DNA of 64,000 bases from an uncultured Verrucomicrobiae bacterium (GCA_963762565.1 CAVXLD010000001.1:1024001-1088000), one strand, 5' to 3'. Numbered from the stretch's first letter, positions 7,038-30,350 are shown. Notes: a model not told the origin generated them from the letters alone. Program-made: numbers and translations.

Positions 7038-7901
7038 CTAGCCCCCGCCGATCTGTTTAGCGGCGAGAGCGAAGACAAAAATGGCAAACGCGATGCAGTA
7101 AACGCCAAAGAATCTCCAGCGCCCGGTCTCAAGCCAGTGAGACAGCAAGCGCAGCGCCAGCAGCCCGGCAATGAAGCTGACCACCATGCCGATGATTCCC
7201 GGCAGTGCCAGTGGTAGCAGGCTTGAAACCTTGGTTGCCTCAGGGTGAGTCTTTACCAACCGCCACAGTTCACGCGCCATGGCCGGAGGCGTGATGATGA
7301 CCGCCAACGCAAAACTGAACTCTTCCATCCGCGACCGGCCAATTCCGGCAAGGAGCCCCGTTGAAATGGTCGCTCCGGAACGAGAAAGCCCTCGAAACGG
7401 GATACAAACGCCTTGCACCGCCCCGACCAAACAAGCCGAAGTATTCGAGACGTCATGTCCTTGCCTCGGTCCAGGTGCGCGAATCGCGGACACAATGATT
7501 AAAACACCGGTAATGAGCAGAGCGATCCCCAGCAAGGGTAACTGCGAAAACAGAGTCTCAATATCGCCCCCCTTCAGAAAAATCTTTTCGATCACGAGTG
7601 TTAACGGCAGCCCTACAATCGCGGTACAGATGGTTGCCAGAACCACTTCCCGAATTGTGGCGATTAAAATCGCCCTGCTGGCAAAGTATCTTCTAAGCCA
7701 AGCGTTCCAGAAATAGACAATCACGGCAAACATCGTCCCCGTGTGCAACATCACTAGCACAAAGGTCCATTCGGGGCTAGACGGGTCCAACCCCAATAAC
7801 TTCTCGACCACAATCACGTGAGCAGAACTGGATACCGGGAGCAATTCCGCGGCGCCTTGGACCAGTCCTAGAAGCAAGATCTGCAGCAAATGCACGGGCA
7901 T
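7038..7901 (-). CDS. uppP: Undecaprenyl-diphosphate phosphatase (UppP/BacA)
   Basis: QGAAELLPVSSSAH, LHTGT and GLSRSGAT motifs; start trimmed to MPVHLLQ (ATG at 7901). Confidence 0.92.
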   Translation of the reverse strand: MPVHLLQILLLGLVQGAAELLPVSSSAHVIVVEKLLGLDPSSPEWTFVLVMLHTGTMFAVIVYFWNAWLRRYFASRAILIATIREVVLATICTAIVGLPLTLVIEKIFLKGGDIETLFSQLPLLGIALLITGVLIIVSAIRAPGPRQGHDVSNTSACLVGAVQGVCIPFRGLSRSGATISTGLLAGIGRSRMEEFSFALAVIITPPAMARELWRLVKTHPEATKVSSLLPLALPGIIGMVVSFIAGLLALRLLSHWLETGRWRFFGVYCIAFAIFVFALAAKQIGGG

Positions 7902-8262
7902 GAATATGTTTCCTGAAGAATCGCTCGCTCCTTCGACGTTTTGGCCCCCGGTTGCAACCAATTTTTGTGTAGGTAGGCCGGAAATTCGGACCAGACGAGG
8001 CACGGCGGATGTGAAGCGCGCCTCGCTTGCGAGGCCGTGGTGAGCAAGGAGACAAAATAAGGCAGGTCCCTGCCGGCGTCTGCGCTCTGTACCGCCGCGA
8101 CGAACAGACAACGGCGCTGTCGCTGGAATCTCGCAGGTTGAATCCATGGAAACACGAGACAGCTCCGCAGTCGAAATTACATAGTGCAGCTCAGACTATG
8201 GAGGGCCTCACTCTCTCGCCCTGGTCACCAACGGCCTCGCAAGCGAGGCACGCTCCACAGGG

Positions 8263-8876
8263 CGCCCTACCAAGTCTCCTCGCTCGCCTTTTGCGACCGG
8301 GTCAAGTCGGCAGCATCGCAGTTTGCGATGGAGCGTTCTTCCCGCCGTTAACCTTGACGTCTGAGACTGCATTTTTCTGCAGACTTCTTCAGAACAGCGT
8401 TCCCCTCGGACGTTGCCGGTTGGTAACGAAACCGCCATCCCTTAGACGCCGGTTTTGCTGGGTCCTGGCTTGTAGGGCGAGGCTCCCGATGACCGAAACG
8501 CGCGCAGAGCGAAATGGATTTCGGCGGTTGTGACATGCACCGTCTAAGATCTGCCGAGCCGTTTGTGGCGCGACCACGGCTCGGCAGCTTTCAGTTATTG
8601 CCTCCCATATACCGACGAAGTGCCGTTCGGCGTCGCGACCTCTCTCGGCTATCACGGAGTCCGTCTCCGCCAAGCTTACGGCGCGGCAAGCTCTCGCCCT
8701 ACCAGCCTCCTCGCTCGCCTTTTGCGACGGGGCAGGTCGGCGACATCGCAGTTCGCGATGGAGCATTCTTCCGACCGTTGCGCTTGACGTCTGAGACTAC
8801 ATTTTTCTGCAAACGTCACCAGATCTTTTCCCCCTAGGACATTACCGATCGGTAACGAAACAGTCATCTCTTAGAC
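8263..8876. repeat. Diverged ~185-bp direct repeat (8263-8448 and 8694-8876) flanking a GTAG-type palindromic element (8472-8702)
   Basis: Shared blocks ctcctcgctcgccttttgcgac, catcgcagtt.gcgatggagc, ttgacgtctgagact.catttttctgca, ggtaacgaaac, cttagacg. Confidence 0.85.
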
Positions 8877-8960
8877 GGGGCTGGTCCTTGGCTTGCTTCC
8901 TGCATGGCGCGGGGAGAGATAGGAGTGGATGGTGTGTTGGGGTAAAAACAGTGGGTCTGG

Positions 8961-10359
8961 ATGAAGGATGGACTGAAACCAGACAGGCGACTAATTCTTG
9001 GACTCGGAGTGGTTCTTATGTTTTCCCAAGCCCGTCTTTATGCCGGTGACGGAACCGCTGCTGCAGCCCAAGCCCACGTCGAGCCCGGCAACCTACGAAC
9101 CCTTGATACCGGTTTGTTCGACGCGTTCAAACAAGCGTTGACCAGCCCGCCTATACACCGCCTGAACCGGGATCACACCAACTCAACGACATGGCGCTTA
9201 TCCGTCGCCTTTCGATGATCCGCCATTCTTTACTCAGACTACCAGGTTGGCGGCACTCCCGTTATCGGCGATCACAACGAGGCCACTCTCTGGCCTTTGA
9301 TGAAGGCGATCTATGGGAGCGGAACCTTCGGGCAATGGCTGAAGGACAACCGCATCAATCTCTATGGCTGGGTGGAAGGAGGGTACAACGTCAGCTCTTC
9401 GAGTCACTCAAACGTCCCAGAGGCCTACGATATACGACCCGATCAACCGGAGCTGACCAGGCCGTTGTTTACCTCGAACGCTTGCCCGACGAATTCCAGA
9501 CAGATCATATGGACTGGGGCTTTCGCGTCTCTGCGATGTACGGCCTAGATTACCGGTTCACCATCTCCAGAGGCCTCTTCAGCTCGCAGTTGCTAAAATA
9601 TAACGAGAAGTACGGCTTCGACATGCCGATGATCTATTTCGACTGGTACATCCCGGGGTTTTTCGACGGAGTGAACATTCGAATCGGCCGGTACATTTCT
9701 CTTCCCGATATCGAAGCCCAGCTCGCCCCGAACAACCCGATGTATACTCACTCGCTTCTTTACACGTTCGATCCGTTCACCCAGGAAGGGATCATGACGT
9801 CGATTAAGCTGAGTCCCAATTGGACCTTTCAATTCGGAGTTAGTGCGGGTAACGACCAGGCAATCTGGGATTCTCAGCGAGGCTAACCGGCACGGTAATG
9901 CTGCAATGGATCTCCTCTACCAATATGGACTCTGTGTACATCGCAGTAATTCGTTCAATGACGGTGAGTACTCTTACAACAATCTTCAGGACTACGTCGC
10001 AACCTGGACGCACAAGTTCAATGATATCGTCAATACGCAAACCGAGGCCTGGTTCATGTACATGAAGGGCGTACCGGGAATCGGCTGGTCGCCTGAATGG
10101 GCCGTGGTCAACTACACCTTCTTCCGGGTATCGAAGAACGTTTTTTTCACTGTCCGAAACGAGTACTTTGACGATGCCTCAGGCCAAAGAACCGGCGTAA
10201 AAGACGTCTATTCCGAGCACGCGATCGGCTTCACCTGGTGGCCAAACAGCATCACCACTATCCGGCCGGAGCTCCGCTTTGACGCGCCTATCAGCGAGAA
10301 GCCTACGACAATCAAACCGCAAGAACCAGTAATACGTCGACATGATCGTGCATTTCTGA
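8961..10359 (+). pseudogene. Outer-membrane beta-barrel porin (BBP2/DUF1597-like), frameshifted
   Basis: Signal peptide, then LYGWVEGGY, DWGFRV, YTHSLLY, RNEYFDD and IRPELRFD motifs spread over several frames, ending ...MIVHF-TGA at 10359; paralog of 10447..11748. Confidence 0.8.
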
Positions 10360-18479: not shown

Positions 18480-18929
18480 CTATATGTCTACTCCGAAACC
18501 AACTTCTGCCACAAACTCGAAGAAATCTTCATAGTCCGTATAGCTGAGGTCCCCGCCGGCTCCCTGTTCAGCCACCCACACGTCCTTCGAGCAAACACCG
18601 TTTTCGACTAGGAAGGCATAGAAGTTCCCGTCGCTATCCTCTGCAAACGGACAGCCGGTCTCCCGATTAAACTCTTCCTTCCCATCCCACATGGAAAACT
18701 GGCTCTCCGGGTCCGGCGATAGCACCGTAATTGTGCCGATCTCTCCGGCACCATATTTCTTAACAAAATACCGATATTCCTCGGGGAATTTAAACCCGGC
18801 CTTCTGCTCAAATTTGATAATCTTATCCTCCTTGATCGGATCCTCCCGCACCAAGAACTCAGAGCTCAGCTGGTCTGGGTCTTCTTCTCGGATTTCGTTA
18901 ATTAGGTTGTCGAAATCTTCCTGAGTCAT
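18480..18929 (-). CDS. SMI1/KNR4 (SUKH) family protein
   Basis: I..FE...GFKFPEEYRYF...YG and PFAEDSDGNFYAF pattern; very acidic. Confidence 0.8.
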   Translation of the reverse strand: MTQEDFDNLINEIREEDPDQLSSEFLVREDPIKEDKIIKFEQKAGFKFPEEYRYFVKKYGAGEIGTITVLSPDPESQFSMWDGKEEFNRETGCPFAEDSDGNFYAFLVENGVCSKDVWVAEQGAGGDLSYTDYEDFFEFVAEVGFGVDI

Positions 18930-19160: not shown

Positions 19161-19610
19161 ATGTCCACCTCTCCATCCGAAGCCATCGCGCTAGTCCGGG
19201 AAGCAAAGGGAAAAAAAGGTCTGACCTGGGAGCAAATTGCGCAGCATGTCGGGCGCTCCCCTGTGTATATCACTTCAGCGTGTCTGGGCGAAAATAGCCT
19301 AATCCCGGAAGACGCCCAAAAGCTTGGCGCGCTCCTCGATCTGGGTCCGGACCTGGTCGCCCTCCTGCAATCCTGTCCTAAGAAGGGCTCAAGATCGCAG
19401 GACATTCCCAAGGACCCCCTGATGTACCGGTTCCATGAGATTAACTTGGTCTACGGAGATACGCTTAAAGAGTTGATTCACGAGAAATTTGGAGACGGGA
19501 TCATGAGTGCGATCGATTTCACGATGGACGTCGAGAAAGTGGAGGATCCCAAGGGAGACCGGGTCAAAGTGACGATGTGCGGCAAGTTTTTGCCTTATAA
19601 GAAGTGGTGA
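19161..19610 (+). CDS. cynS: Cyanase
   Basis: DPLMYRFHE, EKFGDGIMSAIDF and GKFLPY signatures. Confidence 0.97.
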   Translation: MSTSPSEAIALVREAKGKKGLTWEQIAQHVGRSPVYITSACLGENSLIPEDAQKLGALLDLGPDLVALLQSCPKKGSRSQDIPKDPLMYRFHEINLVYGDTLKELIHEKFGDGIMSAIDFTMDVEKVEDPKGDRVKVTMCGKFLPYKKW

Positions 19611-19615
19611 GAGAG

Positions 19616-19836
19616 AGGAGTCAGGAGCCAGGAGAAACGAGCGGGCGAAACGGCGAATGGGCGATTCGAGGCGCAAAGCGCTGGGCAGATTTTAGCCTGG
19701 CTGGCTGCTTTTTTGGAATGCGTACCTAGGACTCGCAAGCTCATCCGAGGGCTGCCGGACTAGGGTTTCCTTCCAGCGCTTTGCGCCTCGAATCGCCCAT
19801 TCGCCGTTTCGCCTACTCGCCCACTCCTGGCTCCTG
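19616..19836. repeat. Composite long inverted repeat (7-mer arm, 8-mer arm, GAGGCGCAAAGCGCTGG)
   Basis: 19616-19684 is the near reverse complement of 19773-19836. Confidence 0.85.
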
Positions 19837-19954: not shown

Positions 19955-19970
19955 TGGCATAGCAGCTGCT
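19955..19970 (+). promoter_or_regulatory. Putative sigma54 promoter upstream of the PII-like/GSII operon
   Basis: TGGCATAGCAGCTGCT (GG-N10-GC), very similar to the APC permease site. Confidence 0.55.
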
Positions 19971-20177: not shown

Positions 20178-20513
20178 ATGAAAAAAATTGAGGCGATCAT
20201 AAAGCCTTTCCAGCTAGAAGAAGTCAAATCCGGTCTTGCCGAATTGGGGATCGAAGGTATGACCGTTACCGAAGTCAAAGGGTTCCCCGTAGCTTTGGTT
20301 GAGCAAACAACCTACACAGGCCTGGGGGCTCCTCGTTTCTTACCCAAATTAAAAGTAGAACTGGTCGTAAGAAACGATTTGCTTGGCTCAGCGATTGCTG
20401 CCATTAAGGAATGCGCCCGCTCGGACCGAAATGACAACGGGAAAATTTTTGTGCAGGACCTCCTTGAAGTAATCCGTATTCGGACGGAAGAGCGCGGAGA
20501 ACGGGCGATTTAA
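20178..20513 (+). CDS. PII-family nitrogen regulatory protein with degenerate T- and B-loops
   Basis: MKKIEAIIKPF, GMTVTEVKGF, FLPK, GKIFV and IRIRT match GlnB; the T-loop is divergent. Confidence 0.9.
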   Translation: MKKIEAIIKPFQLEEVKSGLAELGIEGMTVTEVKGFPVALVEQTTYTGLGAPRFLPKLKVELVVRNDLLGSAIAAIKECARSDRNDNGKIFVQDLLEVIRIRTEERGERAI

Positions 20514-20571
20514 CCGGTACTCCTGCGACCCAATTCTCAAAGGCGAGCTAGCCTTTTCTAGAACTCAAATC

Positions 20572-21594
20572 ATGGCGAAATATAAATTGGAATACATCTG
20601 GCTAGACGGCTATGCGCCGGTTGCCAATATCCGCGGGAAGACCTTAGTTAAGGACTTCGAAACCTTTCCTACTTTGGAGCAGATACCAAACTGGGGATTC
20701 GATGGCAGTTCTACAAGGCAAGCCGAGGGACATAGTTCCGACTGCGTGCTGAAGCCGGTGGCCGTTTATCCCGACAAAACGCGGGTGAACGCGGCGGTTG
20801 TGATGAACGAAGTTTTGCACCCCGACGGCACTCCTCACTCAACCAATGCCCGTGCGACGATTCTGGATGATCCGGATACCTGGTTCGGCTTCGAGCAGGA
20901 ATATTTTTTGTGGAAAGACGGCCTGCCCCTTGGCTTCCCTAAAGCTGGGTTTCCCGATCCACAAGGTGAATATTATACCGGTGTCGGTTACAAAAACGTA
21001 GGTAATATCGCGCGCGAGATCGTCGATGCTCACCTCGATCTTTGTATTGCCGCCGGCATTAACCACGAGGGCATCAATGCCGAAGTGGCCAAAGGCCAAT
21101 GGGAATACCAGATCTTCGGCAAAGGCTCCAAAACTGCCGCGGATCAAGTGTGGGTAGCCCGGTATCTGTTGGCGCGGCTGTGCGAAGCTTACGAGGTGGA
21201 AGTTCAATTGCATTGTAAGCCGATCCTGGGCGATTGGAACGGTTCCGGGTTCCATTGCAATTTCTCGACCAAATACATGCGGGAGGTTGGTGGTAAAGAA
21301 TATTTCGAAGCGCTTATGGCTGCGTTCGACAAGTACAAGAACGAACACATCGCGGTTTATGGACCGGACAATCATCTGCGTCTGACCGGTCTGCACGAGA
21401 CACAATCGATTGACAAATTCAACTACGGCTTGGCCAATCGCGGCGCATCCGTTCGCGTGCCGCATAGCTTCATAAATAATGGTTATAAGGGCTATCTTGA
21501 AGACCGGCGTCCGAACTCCGCCGGGGATCCCTACAAGATCGCCAGCCGCATTTTGCAGACGATCGCAACGGTCCCGAAACCCAACGGTGCTTAA
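20572..21594 (+). CDS. glnII: Glutamine synthetase type II
   Basis: 340 aa; EYIWLDG, WGFDGSST, WFGFEQEY, NAEVAKGQWE, GDWNGSG, RLTGLHET and EDRRP motifs. Confidence 0.95.
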   Translation: MAKYKLEYIWLDGYAPVANIRGKTLVKDFETFPTLEQIPNWGFDGSSTRQAEGHSSDCVLKPVAVYPDKTRVNAAVVMNEVLHPDGTPHSTNARATILDDPDTWFGFEQEYFLWKDGLPLGFPKAGFPDPQGEYYTGVGYKNVGNIAREIVDAHLDLCIAAGINHEGINAEVAKGQWEYQIFGKGSKTAADQVWVARYLLARLCEAYEVEVQLHCKPILGDWNGSGFHCNFSTKYMREVGGKEYFEALMAAFDKYKNEHIAVYGPDNHLRLTGLHETQSIDKFNYGLANRGASVRVPHSFINNGYKGYLEDRRPNSAGDPYKIASRILQTIATVPKPNGA

Positions 21595-21732
21595 GCAGTA
21601 GGTCGGGTCAGGCCCCGAAAAAATTTTGCGAATCGGCATCGTGGGGGGACGGATTTGTCCGGCGCCGCCGGATTCGCCGAATCCTTCCGCACTTGTGCGC
21701 CGCGGCGTGGCGGCGCATTTTGAGCGGTCCGC

Positions 21733-22146
21733 ATGCTGGAAGTGAAAGATACGTTGAGGGCCACCGTCCGTCTCAGTTACGACGGGCGGGTCTATAAGAC
21801 TTTTCACGGCCCGGACTCCCAAGAGCGCTTTAACAACGAAGTCCGGGTGCTTCGTCATCTCGAGAAGCAAAATTGTAACTTCGTGCCCAGGTTACTCGAG
21901 GCAAATCCGGAACTGCTCCGAATCGTCACAACAAACTGCGGTGCACGAGTCGAGCATTTGGATAGGCAGCGCGCCGGTGAGATTTTTGCGGAATTGGAGC
22001 CATACGGCGTGCACCACGAGGACGCTGAGGTGCGCAACATTACCTATCGACAAACCGATGGACGCTTTTGCGTAATCGATTTCGAGTTCGCGACGATTCT
22101 TCCCGGCTTCGAAGAAGCTGCCAATGGATCACGATCATCTCAATAG
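21733..22146 (+). CDS. Minimal protein-kinase-like protein (137 aa)
   Basis: Beta3 Lys (VYK), alphaC Glu (NEVRVL), catalytic loop HEDAEVRN (HxDxxxxN) and IDFE (DFG-like). Confidence 0.75.
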   Translation: MLEVKDTLRATVRLSYDGRVYKTFHGPDSQERFNNEVRVLRHLEKQNCNFVPRLLEANPELLRIVTTNCGARVEHLDRQRAGEIFAELEPYGVHHEDAEVRNITYRQTDGRFCVIDFEFATILPGFEEAANGSRSSQ

Positions 22147-22981
22147 TCCAAACAACGAATCGATTTCACATCGCCTGCAATGGTGGGGAGCTACTGATCG
22201 CGGCAAGATTCGTTCGAACAACGAGGATTCGTTCTTGGGTTTGCAGCTTGACTCCAGAGAGGTCCATCATCTAGGACGGCACGGCGAAGCATCGACGGAA
22301 ACCACTGATCTCGCCTTCGCGGTAAGCGATGGAATGGGCGGCGCTACCGCCGGAGAGTTCGCCAGCAGGATCACCGTGGATCGGGTAACCCATCTCCTCC
22401 AGCGGTCGTTCAAACAATCCGCCGTTGGCATCGAAACTTATTTTGCTGACGTGTTTACCACTCTTTTTGACCAGATTCATCAATCGTTGACGCTGGTTGG
22501 GGAGAGTTATGCGGAATGCTTCGGCATGGGAGCGACCCTGAGTATCTGCTGGTTCAGCCGCGGCTGGATGTATTTCGGGCATATCGGCGATAGCCGTGTT
22601 TACTATTTGCCCGCCCAGGAAAGAGTTATACGACAGATCAGCCACGATGATACCCATGTAGGCTGGCTCCGCCGAAACGGCGATATCAACGAGCGCCAAG
22701 CTCGGACTCATCCGCGCCGGAATGCGCTCCAGAAGGCTCTAGGCGCTGGCAACCAATTTGTCGATCCTCAGGTGGGCGCCGTCGCCTATGAAAGTGGCGA
22801 TCTTTTTCTGCTCTGCACCGATGGTCTAGTCGAAGGACTTTACAATGACCAGATTCTAGAAATTCTGCGCTCTCCTGAAGCTCTGCGCCTGGACCGAAAC
22901 GTCGCCCAGTGCTTGGTTCAAGCGTCATTAGAAGGTGCAGGCAGCGACAACACGACTGCGCTAGTCATCAAGGTGCTCTGA
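22124..22981 (+). CDS. PP2C/PPM family Ser/Thr phosphatase
   Basis: RSNNED, SDGMGG, MGAT, HIGDSR, CTDGL and SDNTT motifs. Confidence 0.93.
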   Translation: MDHDHLNSPNNESISHRLQWWGATDRGKIRSNNEDSFLGLQLDSREVHHLGRHGEASTETTDLAFAVSDGMGGATAGEFASRITVDRVTHLLQRSFKQSAVGIETYFADVFTTLFDQIHQSLTLVGESYAECFGMGATLSICWFSRGWMYFGHIGDSRVYYLPAQERVIRQISHDDTHVGWLRRNGDINERQARTHPRRNALQKALGAGNQFVDPQVGAVAYESGDLFLLCTDGLVEGLYNDQILEILRSPEALRLDRNVAQCLVQASLEGAGSDNTTALVIKVL

Positions 22982-23191
22982 ACCAGGGCAATTTCGCCGA
23001 CCAAAAAAGCAAGACAATCTAACAGAAACCACGCATAAAATGTCGAGCGACGAAAAGGAGCATACTTTTTGCTGCATGCAAGGTTTTGTAGTTGCTAAAT
23101 CCTTGCGCGCTCATTCCACAACATGCAGTTTCGCAACAAACACCTCCAAAAAAGAAGCATACAAAATATAAATAACTGATAACTAGCATTT

Positions 23192-24601
23192 ATGACACCA
23201 GCTGAAGTAACCCAACTCATCGAAAAACAGGGCATCAAGTTAATTGATTTCAAGTTTGCTGACCTTCTTGGAACTTGGCAGCACTTCACCACGACGCTTA
23301 CTGAATATAGCGAAGATCTTTTCACTGACGGCCTCGGATTCGATGGTTCGAGTATTCGTGGCTGGAGGGTCATCAATGCCAGCGACATGCTGGTCATCCC
23401 CGACCCAGACACAGCTTGGGTGGACATCTTCAATGAGGAGCCGACGCTGAGTTTCATCTGCACCATTGAGGATCCTATCACTCGTGAGCCTTATGACCGC
23501 GACCCGCGAGGTGTGGCCGAGAAAGTCGAGGCCTATTTAAAGAGCACCGGAATCGCGGATACAGCGTTTTTCGGCCCGGAGGCTGAGTTCTTCATCTTCG
23601 ATGATGTTCGCTACGACTATACGGCTAACTCATCGTTTCATTCCGTAGACAGCGTTGAAGGCATTTGGAACTCAGGCAGAGAAGAGTTTCCTAACCTTGG
23701 CAATAAGATCCGCCACAAGGAAGGTTACTTCCCGGTTGCTCCGACCGACACTCTCCAGGATATCCGCAACGAGATGTGTCTGGAGATGGAAAAAGCGGGT
23801 ATCCCGATTGAGCGCCAGCACCACGAGGTCGCAACCGCAGGCCAAGCTGAGATCGATATCAGGTTTGCTCCTCTAAAACAGATGGGTGACCACATGATGT
23901 ATTACAAGTACATCACCAAGAACGTCGCCAAGAAGTATAACAAAGTCGTGACGTTTATGCCCAAACCGCTCTTCGGCGACAACGGGTCGGGTATGCACAC
24001 CCATCAATCGCTCTGGAAAGATGGTAAGCCGTTGTTTGCCGGTGATAAATACGCGGGATTGAGCGAAACCGCTTTGTTCTACATCGGCGGGATTCTCAAA
24101 CACGCCCGAGCCCTAACTGCATTCACTAACCCGACCACGAACAGTTATAAGCGGTTGGTTCCCGGATTCGAAGCTCCGGTAAATCTTGCTTACTCCGCCC
24201 GGAACCGATCCGCGGCCATTCGTATTCCTACTTACTCTCCGAATCCGAAAGCCAAAAGAATCGAGTTTCGTACTCCGGATCCCGCCGCTAACCCTTACAT
24301 CGCCTTCGCGGCGCTGCTGTTGGCCGGTTTGGACGGTATCCAGAACCGAATCGACCCGGGCGACCCACTTGATAAGAACCTTTACGAGCTTCCGCCGGAA
24401 GAACTCGCCAAGGTGCCTAGCGTACCCGATTCGCTAGCCGGCGCATTGGACGCCTTGGAAGCGGATCATGAATTCCTGCTCAAAGGCGATGTCTTTAACA
24501 AGGACTTCATCGGTAACTGGATCGAGATGAAAAAGAAGGAGTACGACGCCCTTCGTCTGCGTACGCATCCGTACGAATTCTTCATGTATTTCGACCTGTA
24601 A
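23192..24601 (+). CDS. glnA: Glutamine synthetase type I (GSI-beta)
   Basis: FDGSSI, GPEAEF, HHEVAT, FMPKP, NGSGMH, YKRLVPG and the NLYELP adenylylation motif. Confidence 0.97.
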
Positions 24602-24627
24602 GCCTAACAACCCAAGCTTATTTGCAG

Positions 24628-24660
24628 AAAGCGCCCGGATTTCCGGGCGCTTTTTTGTTT
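24628..24660 (+). terminator. Rho-independent terminator of glnA
   Basis: aaagcgcccgga-tt-tccgggcgctttt followed by ttgttt. Confidence 0.85.
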
Positions 24661-25031: not shown

Positions 25032-26615
25032 ATGGCTAAAGGCTATTTCGCACTCTTGCTGCATGCCCACCTCCCCTTTGTAAGGCATCCGGAGTACCCA
25101 GACTTCCTGGAGGAAGACTGGCTTTTCGAGGCCATCACCGAGACCTACATCCCGCTCTGGCAGGTCTTCGAGGGACTGACTCGCGACGGGGTACGGTTTC
25201 GCCTGGCCATGTCAATGACGCCCACGCTCTGCGCCATGCTGGACGATCCGCTGCTGCGAGCGCGGTATCTGAAATATTTGGATCGCGCGATCGCGCTCTC
25301 AAAAGCAGAAATCGATCGCACTCAAAACCAACCCGACTTTAATCACCTCGCTCGCTACTACCACAGCCGTTTTCTCGAGTGCAGGGAAATCTACGTCGAC
25401 CGTCTCAGATGCGATTTGGTTGGCGCTTTTCGCCGTTTCCAGGAAGCCGGGTTCATCGAGATCATCGCTTGCACCGCGACCCACGGTTTCCTCCCCCTTC
25501 TTGAGCGATATCCTAAAAGCGTCTGGGCTCAGATCGCTATCGGCCGGGACGCTTACGTCAACTCATTCGGTTGCGCGCCTAAAGGAATCTGGTTGCCGGA
25601 ATGCGCTTATCACCAGGGCTTGGACCAGCAACTGCAGGCAGCCGAACTTCGCTGGTTTGTCTTAGATGCTCATGGACTGATGTTCGGGTCTCCGCGTCCG
25701 CGCTATGCCATCTATGCACCCTGCTTTACCCAGGCAGGGCCCGCGGTTTTCGGACGAGACAGAGAATCCAGCAAACAAGTCTGGAGCGCCCAAGAAGGTT
25801 ATCCCGGTGACCCAGCTTACCGGGACTTCTATCGCGACATCGGCTTTGACCTCGACTTGGACTACCTTCGCCCCTTTCTGCCGGACGATGGTCACAGAAA
25901 ATTCACCGGTATCAAATACTACCGGATCACGGGGCGAACCGCTCACAAGCAATCGTATGTCCCAGGTTGGGCGCAGGGAGCGGTGGATCATCACGCGGGG
26001 GATTTCCTTACCAGTCGCGTCAAGCAAATCGAGCATTTGGCTGGCATCACCAATATCAAACCAATCATCGTCTCTCCCTTTGATGCAGAGCTCTTTGGTC
26101 ATTGGTGGTATGAAGGTCCCCAATTTCTGAATTTGTTCATTCGGAAGGCGGTCTACGACCAAACAACCTTCGAATTGATCACTCCAAGCGATTATTTGGA
26201 AAAACATGACACCCTGCAGGTCATTTCACCTAGTCCTTCAAGTTGGGGAAACCGCGGCTTTTGGGAGGTATGGCTGGACGAAAGCAACAGCTGGATCTAC
26301 CCCCATTTGCACGCCGCCGCTCGCCGGATGACCGAGTCTGCCGAGGCGGTAGAAAAGACGCCCGCAAAATGGAAAGAGCGAGTGCTACGCCAGCTGGCCC
26401 GGGAGCTACTCCTGGCGCAATCCAGCGATTGGGCATTTCTAATGAGGACCGGTACCGCGAAAGACTACGCTGCTATGCGGACGAAGACTCATATTCTGAG
26501 ATTTACTCGAATGTACGACCAACTTCGAGGCGGAGTGATCGACGAAGGATTTCTCGCGAATTGTGAATGGCGAGACAATCTGTTCCCGGAGTTACAGTGG
26601 AAATATTATTTATGA
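25032..26615 (+). CDS. GH57 1,4-alpha-glucan branching enzyme (DUF1957)
   Basis: LHAHLPFV, ETYIP, THGFLP, WLPEC, FDAELFGHWW and AQSSDW motifs. Confidence 0.93.
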   Translation: MAKGYFALLLHAHLPFVRHPEYPDFLEEDWLFEAITETYIPLWQVFEGLTRDGVRFRLAMSMTPTLCAMLDDPLLRARYLKYLDRAIALSKAEIDRTQNQPDFNHLARYYHSRFLECREIYVDRLRCDLVGAFRRFQEAGFIEIIACTATHGFLPLLERYPKSVWAQIAIGRDAYVNSFGCAPKGIWLPECAYHQGLDQQLQAAELRWFVLDAHGLMFGSPRPRYAIYAPCFTQAGPAVFGRDRESSKQVWSAQEGYPGDPAYRDFYRDIGFDLDLDYLRPFLPDDGHRKFTGIKYYRITGRTAHKQSYVPGWAQGAVDHHAGDFLTSRVKQIEHLAGITNIKPIIVSPFDAELFGHWWYEGPQFLNLFIRKAVYDQTTFELITPSDYLEKHDTLQVISPSPSSWGNRGFWEVWLDESNSWIYPHLHAAARRMTESAEAVEKTPAKWKERVLRQLARELLLAQSSDWAFLMRTGTAKDYAAMRTKTHILRFTRMYDQLRGGVIDEGFLANCEWRDNLFPELQWKYYL

Positions 26616-28087
26616 GGACACGCGGACGGGTGTTACCGGCCGTGTGGGTCTGGGTAAGTCTCTGGTTGTTTGCGCCGCGACTCTTTGCTGGCGGTGAGGA
26701 AAACGTAGAAACAAGTAAGCAGTTAATTTTTGTCCCGCCTCCAATCGAAGGGGTGATCAGTCTCGGCGTCTACGATGCCCATGGAAAACTGGTGCGAGTG
26801 CTAAAGCAGGCAGCCGAGATCGATTCGTTCAAGCCCGGCCTCAATGGGCTGTTTATTGATTGGGATGGCGCGGATGCCGACGGCAAAGTGGTACCCGCCG
26901 GCAAGTACTCCGCCCGAGGCGTGCTAATCGGCGATGTTAATATTTCCGGGGTTGCTTATCACCTGAACGACTGGGTGGACGACGCGCAAAATCTCAGAGT
27001 CAAAACGATCAGTTCGCCAGCTCTGCTCGGCGGACGATCTCTGGCCGTATTAGCCGATACCGGTCGCCCCGAGATTTTGATCGTTGATGCCGGTTCCCTC
27101 AAAGCGCAGCGATTTTCAATCGACCCGGGTGTCATCCGGCTCAAATCGGATGGTGCTAACCTCTTGGCAATTTACTCCGATCACATCGCAAACATCACGG
27201 CGCCAGACGGGACGATCACGGAAAGCAATGCAGCAATTAATATCCGTGACGCTGACCGTTCGGGTTCAAATTGGGTCATTCTGACCGATCGGGAGATTCA
27301 GTACAAAAATGCGGGACAGACCACCACGATCGCGCTGCCTGACCCTAACATCAGCCGGTGCGCTCTTTTAGCGACATCATTGGTTGTCGCAAGTCCAAAT
27401 GGAAAACTGTGGCGCACAGAAAGTGATCACCTGGTCCAGGTCGACCTGGATGCACCTGGGGAACTACTCGACCTCAGCGCAGGCACGGGGGATCAAATTT
27501 GGTTGCTCATCGGGAACGGACCAAAAACCTGGTTACGGCAAGTCGATCTCGCGGCGAAAACCAGCAAAGATTTCGATCTGCCAGAGGGGCTGCCGAAAAT
27601 TCGCCAGCTATCCGCGTCGAGAACGAATACTGATTTGCTCCTGGACGCCGATCTGAATCCAGGTCAGCGGGTGATCGGCTTACATTTTCAGACCGTTAAA
27701 GATCAGCAATCGGTATGGGAGAAATGGTTTGATCGGTCGCTCGTGCCTCATCAATTCTTCGACGTTCACGCTGGGACCGTTGTACGAGCTGACACCAAAA
27801 CAGATTCACCCGCATTGCTGGTCCGTCCCGAGAACAATCCCTTGGAAAATACGCGCCAAGCTAACTTTTTGTTGAGCGCGGTCGCGGACAACCAGGGTGT
27901 CCATCTGGCGACCAGCGACGGGCTGCCCCTGCTCCAGATTTCAAAGACGAAGGGAATCGATCAGGTCAAATGGGAACCGAATGGTCCTACTGGGATGAAA
28001 GTCTACCTGTCGGACGGAACCGCCGTTGAGGAGTATAGCATCACGGGTTTGGGAAATCTGTACCGCTTTGACGCCGGAAGCTTCTAA
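26612..28087 (+). CDS. Secreted hypothetical protein with an N-terminal FlgD-Ig-like motif
   Basis: Signal peptide; GVYDAHGKLVRVL...WDGADADGKVVPAGKY; ATGA overlap with the GH57 stop. Confidence 0.7.
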   Translation: MRTRGRVLPAVWVWVSLWLFAPRLFAGGEENVETSKQLIFVPPPIEGVISLGVYDAHGKLVRVLKQAAEIDSFKPGLNGLFIDWDGADADGKVVPAGKYSARGVLIGDVNISGVAYHLNDWVDDAQNLRVKTISSPALLGGRSLAVLADTGRPEILIVDAGSLKAQRFSIDPGVIRLKSDGANLLAIYSDHIANITAPDGTITESNAAINIRDADRSGSNWVILTDREIQYKNAGQTTTIALPDPNISRCALLATSLVVASPNGKLWRTESDHLVQVDLDAPGELLDLSAGTGDQIWLLIGNGPKTWLRQVDLAAKTSKDFDLPEGLPKIRQLSASRTNTDLLLDADLNPGQRVIGLHFQTVKDQQSVWEKWFDRSLVPHQFFDVHAGTVVRADTKTDSPALLVRPENNPLENTRQANFLLSAVADNQGVHLATSDGLPLLQISKTKGIDQVKWEPNGPTGMKVYLSDGTAVEEYSITGLGNLYRFDAGSF

Positions 28088-30196: not shown

Positions 30197-30350
30197 AAAG
30201 CCAATCAACGCCCGCGATCGCATCTCGCCGGGCGTTTACCCACCTTCCTAGAATGGCACACGCCGACTCGCCCTTTCGCCCCTTCGCCGCATCGCCCATT
30301 CGCCGTTTCGCCCTTGCTATCTGCTATCTGCTATTCTCTTATTCCCTAGC

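Follow-up and report, generated by a model that had tools for sequence, protein, structure and literature searches.

Between positions 20178 and 24601 of the window, the 64,000-nucleotide stretch of DNA from an uncultured Verrucomicrobiae bacterium that we analysed (GCA_963762565.1 CAVXLD010000001.1:1024001-1088000), the genes for a small kinase-like protein and a protein phosphatase lie between those for two different glutamine synthetases, GSII and GSI. PII is classically modified by GlnD and GSI by GlnE, and the question that this locus raises is which protein the kinase-phosphatase pair would act upon. A preliminary description of this DNA had proposed that the pair reversibly phosphorylates either the PII-like protein encoded at the head of the cluster or GSII; co-inheritance and recurrent adjacency across the phylum Verrucomicrobiota point to GSII and away from PII. 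That the pair is so strictly co-inherited with a single glutamine synthetase type in this group of soil bacteria suggests an on/off switch for nitrogen assimilation that has not been described before. Literature searches found no publication on a kinase-PP2C-GSII module, which agrees with the statement in that description that no known module was recognised here.

Organisation of the cluster

The cluster comprises five open reading frames on the + strand, including an overlapping kinase-phosphatase pair, just as the preliminary description had it. An atypical PII-family protein of 111 aa is encoded first (20178..20513; PF00543, 80.9 bits, cut-off 25), followed by glnII (20572..21594) for the 340-aa GSII (GlnII), the proposed object of regulation. 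The third gene (21733..22146) encodes a kinase-like protein of 137 aa, hereafter the mini-kinase, the fourth (22124..22981) a PP2C (PPM) Ser/Thr phosphatase of 285 aa (PP2C_2, PF13672, 62.7 bits, cut-off 24), and the fifth (23192..24601) the 469-aa GSI (GlnA; TIGR00653, 664.8 bits, cut-off 429). The kinase and PP2C reading frames share 23 nt (22124-22146), and given this overlap the two are predicted to be translationally coupled in the window; the remaining intergenic gaps in the cluster measure 58, 138 and 210 nt.

A sigma-54-type promoter-like site, TGGCATAGCAGCTGCT (19955..19970, + strand), lies 207 nt 5′ of the PII start and is a candidate promoter for the cluster. Directly 3′ of glnA, a strong intrinsic-terminator-like hairpin of 13 pairs with a T-run (24626..24655, + strand) probably marks the 3′ end of the transcription unit, and a scan of positions 20178-24601 revealed no terminator comparable to it. 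The family-model search of the window also placed a cyanase gene upstream of the cluster.

The GSII protein matches Gln-synt_N and Gln-synt_C above their cut-offs (PF03951, 35.2 bits, cut-off 33.4; PF00120, 54.3 bits, cut-off 24), and its best solved relative, Streptomyces GlnII (4bax, 305 bits), aligns over the full length (residues 4-334). The GlnII equivalog NF041605 gives 374 bits on it, under the cut-off of 500, and by sequence the protein appears to belong to a divergent GSII clade.

The pair is co-inherited with GSII

Of 61 relatives, 18 encode the mini-kinase, the PP2C ortholog (called at E <= 5e-78) and GSII together, and the remaining 43 encode none of the three. Across a phylum sample of 401 high-quality genomes, GSII was encoded by every one of the 77 genomes with the kinase, and the kinase was missing from all 316 that lack GSII, a perfect match whose statistical strength is overstated because the compared genomes are relatives and therefore non-independent. 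Presence and absence were mixed within seven families or genera, and there, too, the pattern was always concordant.

The genes are also linked. GSII adjoins the pair in 10 of 17 mapped relatives' loci and lies within 700 nt of it in 52 of 71 wider loci, 51 of these 52 being divergent, and this linkage recurs in several orders of Verrucomicrobiota. In the other seven mapped relatives all three genes are retained even though GSII is encoded at a distance from the pair, either on a separate contig or in a different part of the same one. GSII is the sole recurrent direct neighbour of the pair; where it is not adjacent, the neighbours are unrelated housekeeping genes. The linkage of kinase, PP2C and GSII is thus beyond chance, and the conserved unit consists of these three components, not of PII or GSI. 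The linkage to nitrogen genes raised in the preliminary description accordingly holds for glnII, whereas adjacency of PII and GSI to the module was seen in the window's genus only.

Taken together, the presence/absence pattern and the linkage support GSII as the target. What the co-inheritance itself shows is a functional dependence between the pair and GSII, not a direct enzyme-substrate relation. The 57 module-linked GSII orthologs have a mean column identity of 80% in their alignment. A sister clade of GSII at 58-61% identity is present in 8 genomes that belong to other classes and lack the module; therefore GSII in general can do without it.

A minimal kinase-fold protein and its phosphatase partner

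The conserved core of the mini-kinase covers ~123 of its 137 aa and consists of a protein-kinase-like N-lobe followed by the catalytic loop and a DFE motif; both conservation and the modelled fold stop ~7 residues past DFE. The protein has no activation segment, no helical C-lobe (alpha-F to alpha-I) and no glycine-rich loop motif, and it is not a complete Hanks domain, with no match to Pkinase (PF00069) at E <= 0.01. With residues assigned to kinase subdomains from the model and fold matches, the Hanks-kinase catalytic set is nevertheless complete: the beta-3 Lys (K22), the alpha-C Glu (E36), HxD (H95-x-D97), Asn (N102) and the DFG-type Asp (D116-F-E118) are invariant in 91 mini-kinase sequences that are otherwise as little as 49% identical.

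The PP2C carries all PP2C metal-binding motifs (NED, DGMGG, GDSR, DGL and DNTT). The Stp1-type equivalog gives 169 bits on it, under the cut-off of 230, and its closest solved relatives are PstP (2cm1, 94.7 bits) and tPphA (2j82, 79.7 bits). Its gene lies directly 3′ of the mini-kinase gene in 17 of 17 mapped relatives' loci and in 77 of 78 wider loci. A search for longer proteins with the mini-kinase returned 797 at E <= 1e-5, and 119 of the best 120 of these contain a PP2C family domain, most of them being ~400 aa long. Such kinase-PP2C fusions occur in many lineages, and one was predicted with confidence as a single-chain fold (pLDDT 87, pTM 0.78). Kinase and PP2C thus appear to act as one unit, and the mini-kinase, having neither activation segment nor alpha-F helix, may be inactive by itself.

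The same features would fit a kinase-like protein that is inert, or that merely senses nucleotides as a regulatory domain of the PP2C, the latter then being the sole enzyme and reversing an unlinked kinase: the glycine-rich loop motif, activation segment and alpha-F scaffold are missing, and the protein is always fused to or beside PP2C. Pseudokinases, however, usually lose some catalytic residues, and with the entire catalytic set retained in every ortholog compared we regard this explanation as very improbable and infer that the kinase is active.

As for what it phosphorylates, the APH-type model PF01636 matches residues 65-122 only, the catalytic-loop region (29.4 bits, cut-off 23.2), and is a generic kinase-core match that is uninformative on substrate. 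There are weak matches to Kdo kinases and to Bud32 (TIGR03724, 24 bits, cut-off 125), and the mini-kinase gene is accompanied by those for PP2C and GSII and not by Kae1. By identity, the closest solved fold is the RNA kinase Ark1 (26-27%), and because APH-type small-molecule kinases score about like Ark1, the class of substrate cannot be read from the fold alone. These resemblances leave room for a non-protein substrate, either RNA, as for ArkI, or a small molecule, as for APH and Kdo kinases, with the PP2C then acting separately or in a regulatory capacity. PPM phosphatases dephosphorylate proteins, and the obligate pairing and frequent fusion of the mini-kinase with one of them speak against a non-protein substrate, as does its similarity to the Ark1 profile, which is weak (E = 0.2).

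The comparison with ArkI/Ark1, an archaeal tRNA 2′-kinase (AQ578/COG2112; PDB 8yv4, 8yv5 and 7vnx), points the same way. The passages of PMC9095486 on this enzyme describe a protein of 171-216 aa that binds tRNA through residues in its C-lobe (subdomain IX, the YKR motif of alpha-7 and a basic patch) and whose eraser is KptA/Tpt1, not a PP2C. Unlike ArkI as depicted there, the mini-kinase ends before the tRNA-binding elements, is partnered with a PP2C and is not basic, its core being acidic to neutral (pI 5.7 in the window, median 6.4 in 99 orthologs). Because of this PPM partner and a core that does not share the basic charge of ArkI's tRNA-binding surface, we favour a protein substrate and consider RNA or a small molecule improbable.

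PII and GSI are additions specific to the genus

The PII-family protein aligns full length to solved PIIs, but it is only the fourth best of 6 PII-family matches in the genome, and PII equivalogs fall far under their cut-offs (NF008111, 101 against 202 bits; NF007946, 87.6 against 181 bits). In an alignment to E. coli GlnB, R38, Q39 and K40 are replaced by V, A and L, while Ser49 corresponds to Leu and Tyr51 to a gap; in GlnB numbering we take these to be the T-loop base, the phosphorylation site and the uridylylation site, respectively. The B-loop reads SDRNDNGK(IF), against TGKIGDGK(I/V)F in at least 40 canonical PIIs of the phylum, and the nucleotide-binding motif TGxxGDGKIF is absent from the window protein. 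The preliminary description was therefore right to call this PII atypical, and the T-loop residues that it named, T44, T45, Y46 and T47, are read in the translation.

Only in the sister species G002 did we find an ortholog of the atypical PII; it is 89% identical and has QPGRSG in place of the T-loop QTTYTG, so that T44, T45 and Y46 are not retained. Among the mapped relatives and wider loci, the atypical PII stands beside GSII in the window's genus only. It is a genus-specific addition to the cluster and seems to be a fast-evolving paralog.

Could the pair nevertheless phosphorylate a PII T-loop, on this protein or on a canonical RGSEY-type GlnB/GlnK, in the manner of cyanobacterial PII-P/PphA? 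The position of the PII gene at the head of the cluster suggests it, canonical PIIs of the phylum have Ser49 within RGSEY, and 28 of 63 loci have a convergent PII gene downstream of the pair, in one case as a glnK-amtB pair with amtB in between. In the cyanobacterial system, too, a PPM phosphatase serves nitrogen signalling, PphA reversing the phosphorylation of PII on Ser49, and the window PP2C resembles tPphA; to our knowledge, no kinase is known for cyanobacterial PII. Against this, the PP2C is nearer to PstP than to tPphA, the window PII has no equivalent of Ser49 or Tyr51, and its T-loop acceptors are lost in the sister species. The RGSEY T-loop of canonical PIIs is identical with and without the module, as four module-lacking genomes exemplify, and presence of the module follows GSII, not PII. 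A GlnD-type uridylyltransferase is, moreover, encoded elsewhere in the genome for classical modification. We accordingly hold that PII, the other half of the original proposal, is quite improbable as the substrate.

GSI is likewise outside the conserved unit and a neighbour in the window's genus only: among mapped relatives it stands beside the module in the sister species G002 and G005, and none of the 80 wider loci has it there. The full five-gene arrangement was seen only in the window and G002, the contig of G005 ending at GSII. GSI retains the adenylylation-site motif NLYELP at residue 396, and GlnE domains are encoded elsewhere in the genome (C5:376381-378453). This leaves GSII as the component without a known modifier in the window's genome.

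Direct or indirect control of GSII

The sigma-54-type site upstream of the cluster recurs in G002, 210 nt upstream of PII, and in two relatives that have no PII gene there, 93-119 nt upstream of glnII. A site matching the consensus at 9 or more of 11 positions occurs in 20 of 57 divergent glnII/kinase intergenic regions, and in 17 of these 20 it is oriented towards glnII. The support for the site lies in this conserved position, because the window-wide count of such sites (30, with 27.6 expected) is not above chance.

In the reading that we favour, with a probability of roughly one half, the pair works as a bifunctional kinase/phosphatase with GSII as its reversibly phosphorylated substrate. 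The unit would then consist of GSII and a two-part covalent-modification enzyme, made up of a minimal protein-kinase-fold protein and an active-looking PP2C, which jointly put on and take off a Ser/Thr phosphate on GSII. With glnII transcribed from a sigma-54 promoter of the nitrogen-limitation type, this phosphorylation could tune GSII activity after nitrogen shifts, and the pair would be to GSII what GlnE, through adenylylation, is to GSI. The nitrogen-related surroundings are in keeping with this reading: sigma-54-like sites before glnII, the convergent PII genes and the glnK-amtB pair downstream in other loci, and cyanase in the window. The window's genus may further have drawn an extra PII paralog and the GSI gene into the sigma-54-headed unit, forming one nitrogen-assimilation cluster.

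A comparison of clade positions identified no phosphoacceptor site on GSII: clade-specific Ser/Thr make up 5 of the 50 positions that discriminate the clade, against 18 of the 227 conserved ones, which is no enrichment. This result would also suit a pair that controls GSII indirectly, through another protein such as an activator of transcription, a small inhibitor or a PII adaptor. Regulators and their targets are typically laid out divergently around a shared regulatory region, as the pair and glnII are in all but one of the adjacent cases; a sigma-54 promoter 5′ of glnII implies an enhancer-binding activator, and PII-family genes lie within 6 kb of the pair in 38 of 80 loci. In the loci surveyed, however, no candidate intermediate gene is conserved beside the module, and a direct relation is the simplest account of the strict three-way co-retention. 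Indirect control is for us unlikely, and direct phosphorylation of GSII is the reading that we retain.

Relation to described regulatory systems

The pair resembles Hanks-type Stk/Stp pairs (PknB/PstP, PrkC/PrpC) in that kinase-fold and PPM genes occur together, would be translationally coupled and share a reversible Ser/Thr logic, and PstP is also the solved protein most similar to the window PP2C. It differs in the short core of the mini-kinase, which has no PF00069 match, activation segment, C-lobe helices, or sensor or membrane domains, and in its dedication to one metabolic gene, glnII. The phosphatase gene comes first in classical Stk/Stp operons, whereas the kinase gene is first in the window. 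Other small kinases, namely OspG/NleH, Bud32/PRPK and the RIO kinases, have kinase domains of ~160-270 aa that keep part of the C-lobe, and none of them is known to be paired with PP2C or GSII.

A functional analogy may be drawn with GlnE, the GSI adenylyltransferase/removase, with AceK, the isocitrate dehydrogenase kinase/phosphatase, and with HprK/P, which is likewise a bifunctional modifier: each combines opposing activities in one protein or complex with a single metabolic target, as the module is proposed to do. There is no sequence or fold relation to these enzymes; the module would use phosphorylation instead of the adenylylation of GlnE, and two catalytic domains, a kinase fold and a PPM, in place of one shared site.

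As in the adjacent GSI-GSII pairs of Frankia and ocean metagenomes, both synthetase genes lie close together in one cluster. In its passages on these families, the GOS paper counts 19 cases of GSI next to GSII and names PII as one of the genes found beside GSII; PP2C and kinases are handled there separately, without a link to GSII (PMC1821046). Unlike in those pairs, GSI adjacency of the kind seen in the window is genus-specific.

Gene organization of the glutamine synthetase cluster

The preliminary description of this DNA reported a cluster of five co-oriented open reading frames, and their coordinates and family-model matches bear this out. A PII-family gene (20178-20513, +; PF00543, 80.9 bits) is followed by the gene for GSII (20572-21594, +), whose two GS domains both score above cut-off and whose 374 bits against NF041605 lie below the 500-bit equivalog cut-off of that model. 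Next come a 137-aa kinase-like protein (21733-22146, +; APH, 29.4 bits, with weak Kdo and Bud32 matches), a PP2C phosphatase (22124-22981, +; PP2C_2, 62.7 bits; Stp1-type, 169 bits), whose reading frame overlaps that of the kinase by 23 nt, and GSI (23192-24601, +; TIGR00653, 664.8 bits). A cyanase gene (cynS, 19161-19610, +; 202 bits) lies directly 5′ of the cluster, here and in the sister species G002, and adds a further nitrogen-yielding function adjoining the GS genes. The 20 listed sequencing runs matching the 4.4-kb stretch are soil DNA metagenomes, with no RNA run among those listed.

Genomic neighbourhood of the kinase

We searched for the kinase in 61 related genomes, fetched approximately 14 kb around 17 copies and mapped the proteins of the window onto these loci. 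The kinase is present in 18 of the 61 relatives, as a single copy each time. PP2C lies directly 3′ of the kinase at 17 of 17 loci, and GSII adjoins it at 10 of 17. Among these loci, PII adjoins the module of kinase, PP2C and GSII only in G002, the contig of the second sister species, G005, stopping at GSII, and GSI adjacency is confined to G002 and G005. The seven loci without GSII have unrelated neighbours (SecDF, an epimerase, an S49 peptidase, an ABC ATPase, a P-type ATPase, a Na/Ca exchanger and YebC).

When named species genomes were scanned, at least 584 relatives of the kinase came up, and the best 80 loci were examined. Nearly all of these are labelled Verrucomicrobiota, covering Chthoniobacterales, Terrimicrobiaceae, Limisphaerales/Pedosphaera, Methylacidiphilales, Opitutales and Verrucomicrobiales, and a few taxon labels resemble mis-binned contigs. 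PP2C directly follows the kinase at 77 of the 78 loci with enough flank. GSII is found no more than 700 nt upstream at 52 of 71 loci (51 divergent and one co-oriented) and farther off at four more, and a convergent PII gene lies downstream at 28 of 63, many of them labelled Limisphaerales or Pedosphaera. At locus L064 the order is glnII ← / → kinase → PP2C / ← amtB ← glnK, with amtB-glnK at 7479-9337 (−); together with the 28 convergent PII genes, this indicates that the module frequently adjoins a second nitrogen operon. A survey of kinase homologs for linkage to nitrogen genes, as suggested in the preliminary description, thus upholds linkage to glnII but not to GSI, which was near the kinase at none of the 80 wider loci.

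Co-inheritance of the kinase, PP2C and GSII

GSII (E ≤ 1e-40) is encoded in exactly the 18 of 61 genomes that hold the kinase; in seven of them it is not beside the kinase-PP2C pair, sitting either on a different contig or at another place on the same one. The PP2C ortholog (E ≤ 5e-78) is confined to the same 18 genomes, the only further match being a weak paralog (G035, 1.6e-22). For a view of the phylum, 401 genomes of at least 90% completeness were evenly drawn. The kinase occurs in 77 and GSII in 85 of them, GSII is present in 77 of 77 kinase genomes, and neither gene occurs in 316. The eight genomes with GSII only come from other classes; their GSII has 58-61% identity, and neither kinase nor PP2C was detected within 4 kb of it. 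Where only some members of a family or genus hold the genes (f1, f7, f11, f18, f19, f20 and f23), kinase and GSII are concordant throughout. Because relatives are not independent, this match of presence and absence is not a formal test; the recurring concordance and the joint retention of genes that are not linked nevertheless argue for a functional dependence between kinase and GSII rather than hitch-hiking.

The kinase and PP2C as one unit

Judged by gene order and natural fusions, the kinase and PP2C form one unit. Longer proteins were searched for as well, with 797 matches at E ≤ 1e-5; the PP2C family was present in 119 of the best 120 listed, mostly approximately 400 aa long. In 64 aligned fusions the kinase core is N-terminal, and a linker of approximately 14 residues connects it to PP2C. 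One such fusion, P0126, was confidently predicted as a single chain (pLDDT 87, pTM 0.78). In the genus g54 the kinase reading frame spans 423-463 aa in five genomes, and at the two loci fetched (L132 and L133) PP2C directly follows it, with GSII divergent alongside. The PP2C of the window has a complete set of metal-binding motifs, and its nearest solved relatives are PstP (94.7 bits) and tPphA (79.7 bits).

A kinase core of approximately 123 residues

Residues invariant across 91 orthologs include K22, E36, H95, D97, N102 and D116-F117-E118, and conservation ends at approximately residue 123. In the AF2 model (pLDDT 84, pTM 0.79), a five-stranded N-lobe that includes the alpha-C helix leads into a single further helix and the catalytic loop; two short pairs of strands and the DFE motif come next, and there the chain stops. 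We also considered that the reading frame is a piece of a longer gene and rejected this, only three codons being open upstream (a 140-aa open frame) and M1 being invariant. A kinase this truncated may not be active on its own. That the protein is an inert regulatory domain, with this set of residues held invariant, is nonetheless the least probable of the alternatives that we weighed.

Foldseek ranks the 171-aa archaeal RNA kinase Ark1 first (26% identity, E 1.6e-5), ahead of Rio2, WbdD, OspG, NleH1 and PRPK/Bud32; by sequence, Ark1 matches at E = 0.2 only. A non-protein substrate, of which RNA would be an example, is improbable: the kinase is acidic to neutral (pI 5.7 in the window, median 6.4), it lacks the C-lobe in which ArkI has its tRNA-binding residues, and the eraser of ArkI is KptA, not PP2C, both points on ArkI coming from the available part of PMC9095486. 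Membership tests place the kinase outside the Hanks and Bud32 families and probably outside the ArkI family. Its profile gave 465 matches at E ≤ 0.001 against 1.84 billion representatives, and a metagenome collection of 5.8 billion proteins holds at least 7,979 clusters (90% identity) of near length. From these searches, the family is a compact and isolated one of standalone proteins or fusions of approximately 400 aa. None of the solved kinase-fold chains among the fold-search matches listed is shorter than approximately 160 residues, and the mini-kinase, smaller than any of them, is of structural interest. Because all catalytic residues lie within approximately 123 residues, it probes the minimal needs of a kinase fold and its completion by a partner.

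PII and GSI as candidate targets

The preliminary description proposed that the pair reversibly phosphorylates the PII T-loop or GSII, and its statement that the window PII carries T44, T45, Y46 and T47 is correct. This PII, the fourth best of six PII-family matches in its genome, lacks R38/Q39/K40, Ser49 and Tyr51 and has a degenerate B-loop. Its sole ortholog found, in G002, is 89% identical and has QPGRSG in place of QTTYTG, such that the hydroxyl at position 47 alone is common to both. In other lineages the PIIs near the module are mostly canonical, with GRQKGHTEIYRGSEYTVDF. Ser49 of canonical PII was rejected as a mark of module-bearing genomes because the same GRQKGHTEIYRGSEYTVDF T-loop occurs in four genomes without the module (G049, G071, G083 and G098). 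Co-inheritance and linkage thus favour the GSII half of the proposal; PII is an improbable substrate of the pair, the atypical PII having been found beside the module in one genus only and, the shared hydroxyl aside, not keeping its acceptors.

The genome encodes a GlnD-type enzyme (C1:974k) and GlnE (contig 5), GSI retains NLYELP, and the only two GS genes of the genome are those of the cluster. PII and GSI are therefore already served by their classical modifiers; GSII alone has none. On this comparative evidence, PII and GSI are bystanders in the genus of the window and lie outside the module.

PII variants were also observed elsewhere. The six matches in the window's own genome are on contigs C1, C5 and C7 (loci L118-L123); the PII of L120 has a long T-loop insertion, that of L122 is very divergent (49.8 bits) and that of L123 is a C-terminal fragment only. 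In two Chthoniobacterales MAGs the gene for another atypical PII (L089:357-695 and L105:4285-4623) converges on the 3′ end of glnII; the T-loop of this PII is GYGHHTMHTEMYRD(S/A)(T/A)YQVDF. More variant PIIs lie approximately 4 kb away in L039, L040 and L047. PII may have diversified repeatedly around glnII.

Candidate promoter and terminator signals

Across 57 intergenic regions between divergent glnII and kinase genes, the top-scoring sigma-54-type site averages 8.3 of 11 positions, compared with 5.6 in shuffles. A site of at least 9 of 11 positions occurs in 20 of the 57; 17 of these 20 point at glnII, 16 of them 87-187 nt from its start. In two genomes of the window's family, G016 and G020, such a site lies 93-119 nt 5′ of glnII; its counterpart in the window (19955-19970) and in G002 is 207-210 nt 5′ of the PII gene. 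Because sigma-54 sites counted over the whole window are at chance level (30 observed versus 27.6 expected), only their positional conservation was kept as support. Scans for sigma-70 promoters and terminators inside the cluster gave nothing above shuffles except a terminator after glnA, a strong terminator-like hairpin (24626-24655) with no comparable one inside the cluster. The simplest reading of these positions is that a PII paralog was inserted between promoter and glnII in the genus of the window, so that PII and glnII would be transcribed together, probably with kinase, PP2C and glnA in the same transcript.

Clade-specific residues of GSII

Five Ser/Thr residues are specific to the module-linked GSII clade (T70, T136, S186, T233 and S299). 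Within the loop FGKGSK(T/S)AAD, position 186 is Ser in 67 of 67 module-linked sequences, up to five of which have an internal stop from ORF extraction, and Ala in all eight from module-less genomes. Because Ser/Thr is not enriched at clade-discriminating positions (5/50 versus 18/227) and the T233 and S299 positions are also Ser/Thr in the solved GSIIs aligned, the five sites were dropped as acceptor evidence. Control of GSII might instead be indirect, through another protein, which we consider unlikely. The module-linked clade also has a two-residue insertion in YKNVGxI.

A candidate phosphorylation system for GSII

GSI is under the textbook GlnE/PII cascade. To our knowledge, post-translational control of bacterial GSII is poorly understood, and we know of no equivalent of GlnE/PII for it. 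The best-supported reading of the genomic evidence, to which we give a probability of approximately 0.5, is a bifunctional kinase/phosphatase that would reversibly phosphorylate GSII. In a bolder version, PP2C would supply the missing C-lobe of the kinase, in cis or in trans, GSII would be phosphorylated and dephosphorylated according to nitrogen status, and PII might control the bifunctional enzyme. This joint proposal of an undescribed, dedicated and nitrogen-responsive enzyme that controls Verrucomicrobiae GSII, with a kinase of approximately 123 residues and a C-lobe from PP2C, is more tentative and less likely than not. If true, no smaller working protein-kinase domain would be known, and the system would be a phosphorylation-based counterpart of the GlnE/PII cascade on GSI.

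Among known systems, Stk/Stp-type kinase-PP2C pairs come closest, sharing both logic and phosphatase family; in function, the nearest are GlnE, AceK and HprK/P. In the literature searched, no link of such a kinase-PP2C pair to GSII was found. The available part of the GOS paper describes bacterial GSII as abundant, records PII among the genes near it as well as pairs of GSI with GSII, and handles PP2C and kinases apart from GSII (PMC1821046). The strictly co-inherited kinase/phosphatase is a concrete, testable candidate for GSII control in an abundant soil phylum.

Other features of the window

The interval from cynS to the PII gene contains an inverted repeat whose 47-nt arms (19638-19684 and 19773-19819) are 96% complementary and separated by 88 nt. 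Copies of the arm sequence are dispersed over many contigs of the genome (75 matches), among them one near 30288-30313 and one just 5′ of another PII paralog (C1:1457789); the repeat resembles a REP- or MITE-like element. A SUKH/SMI1-KNR4 family protein (18480-18929, −; immunity-protein-like, 52.7 bits), 98% identical in G002, is encoded between an FMN-dependent dehydrogenase and cynS. A GH57-type branching enzyme gene (25032-26615, +) overlaps by 49 nt a 506-aa reading frame (26567-28087, +) with a weak FlgD Ig-like match only, and both are kept 3′ of glnA in G002 and G005.
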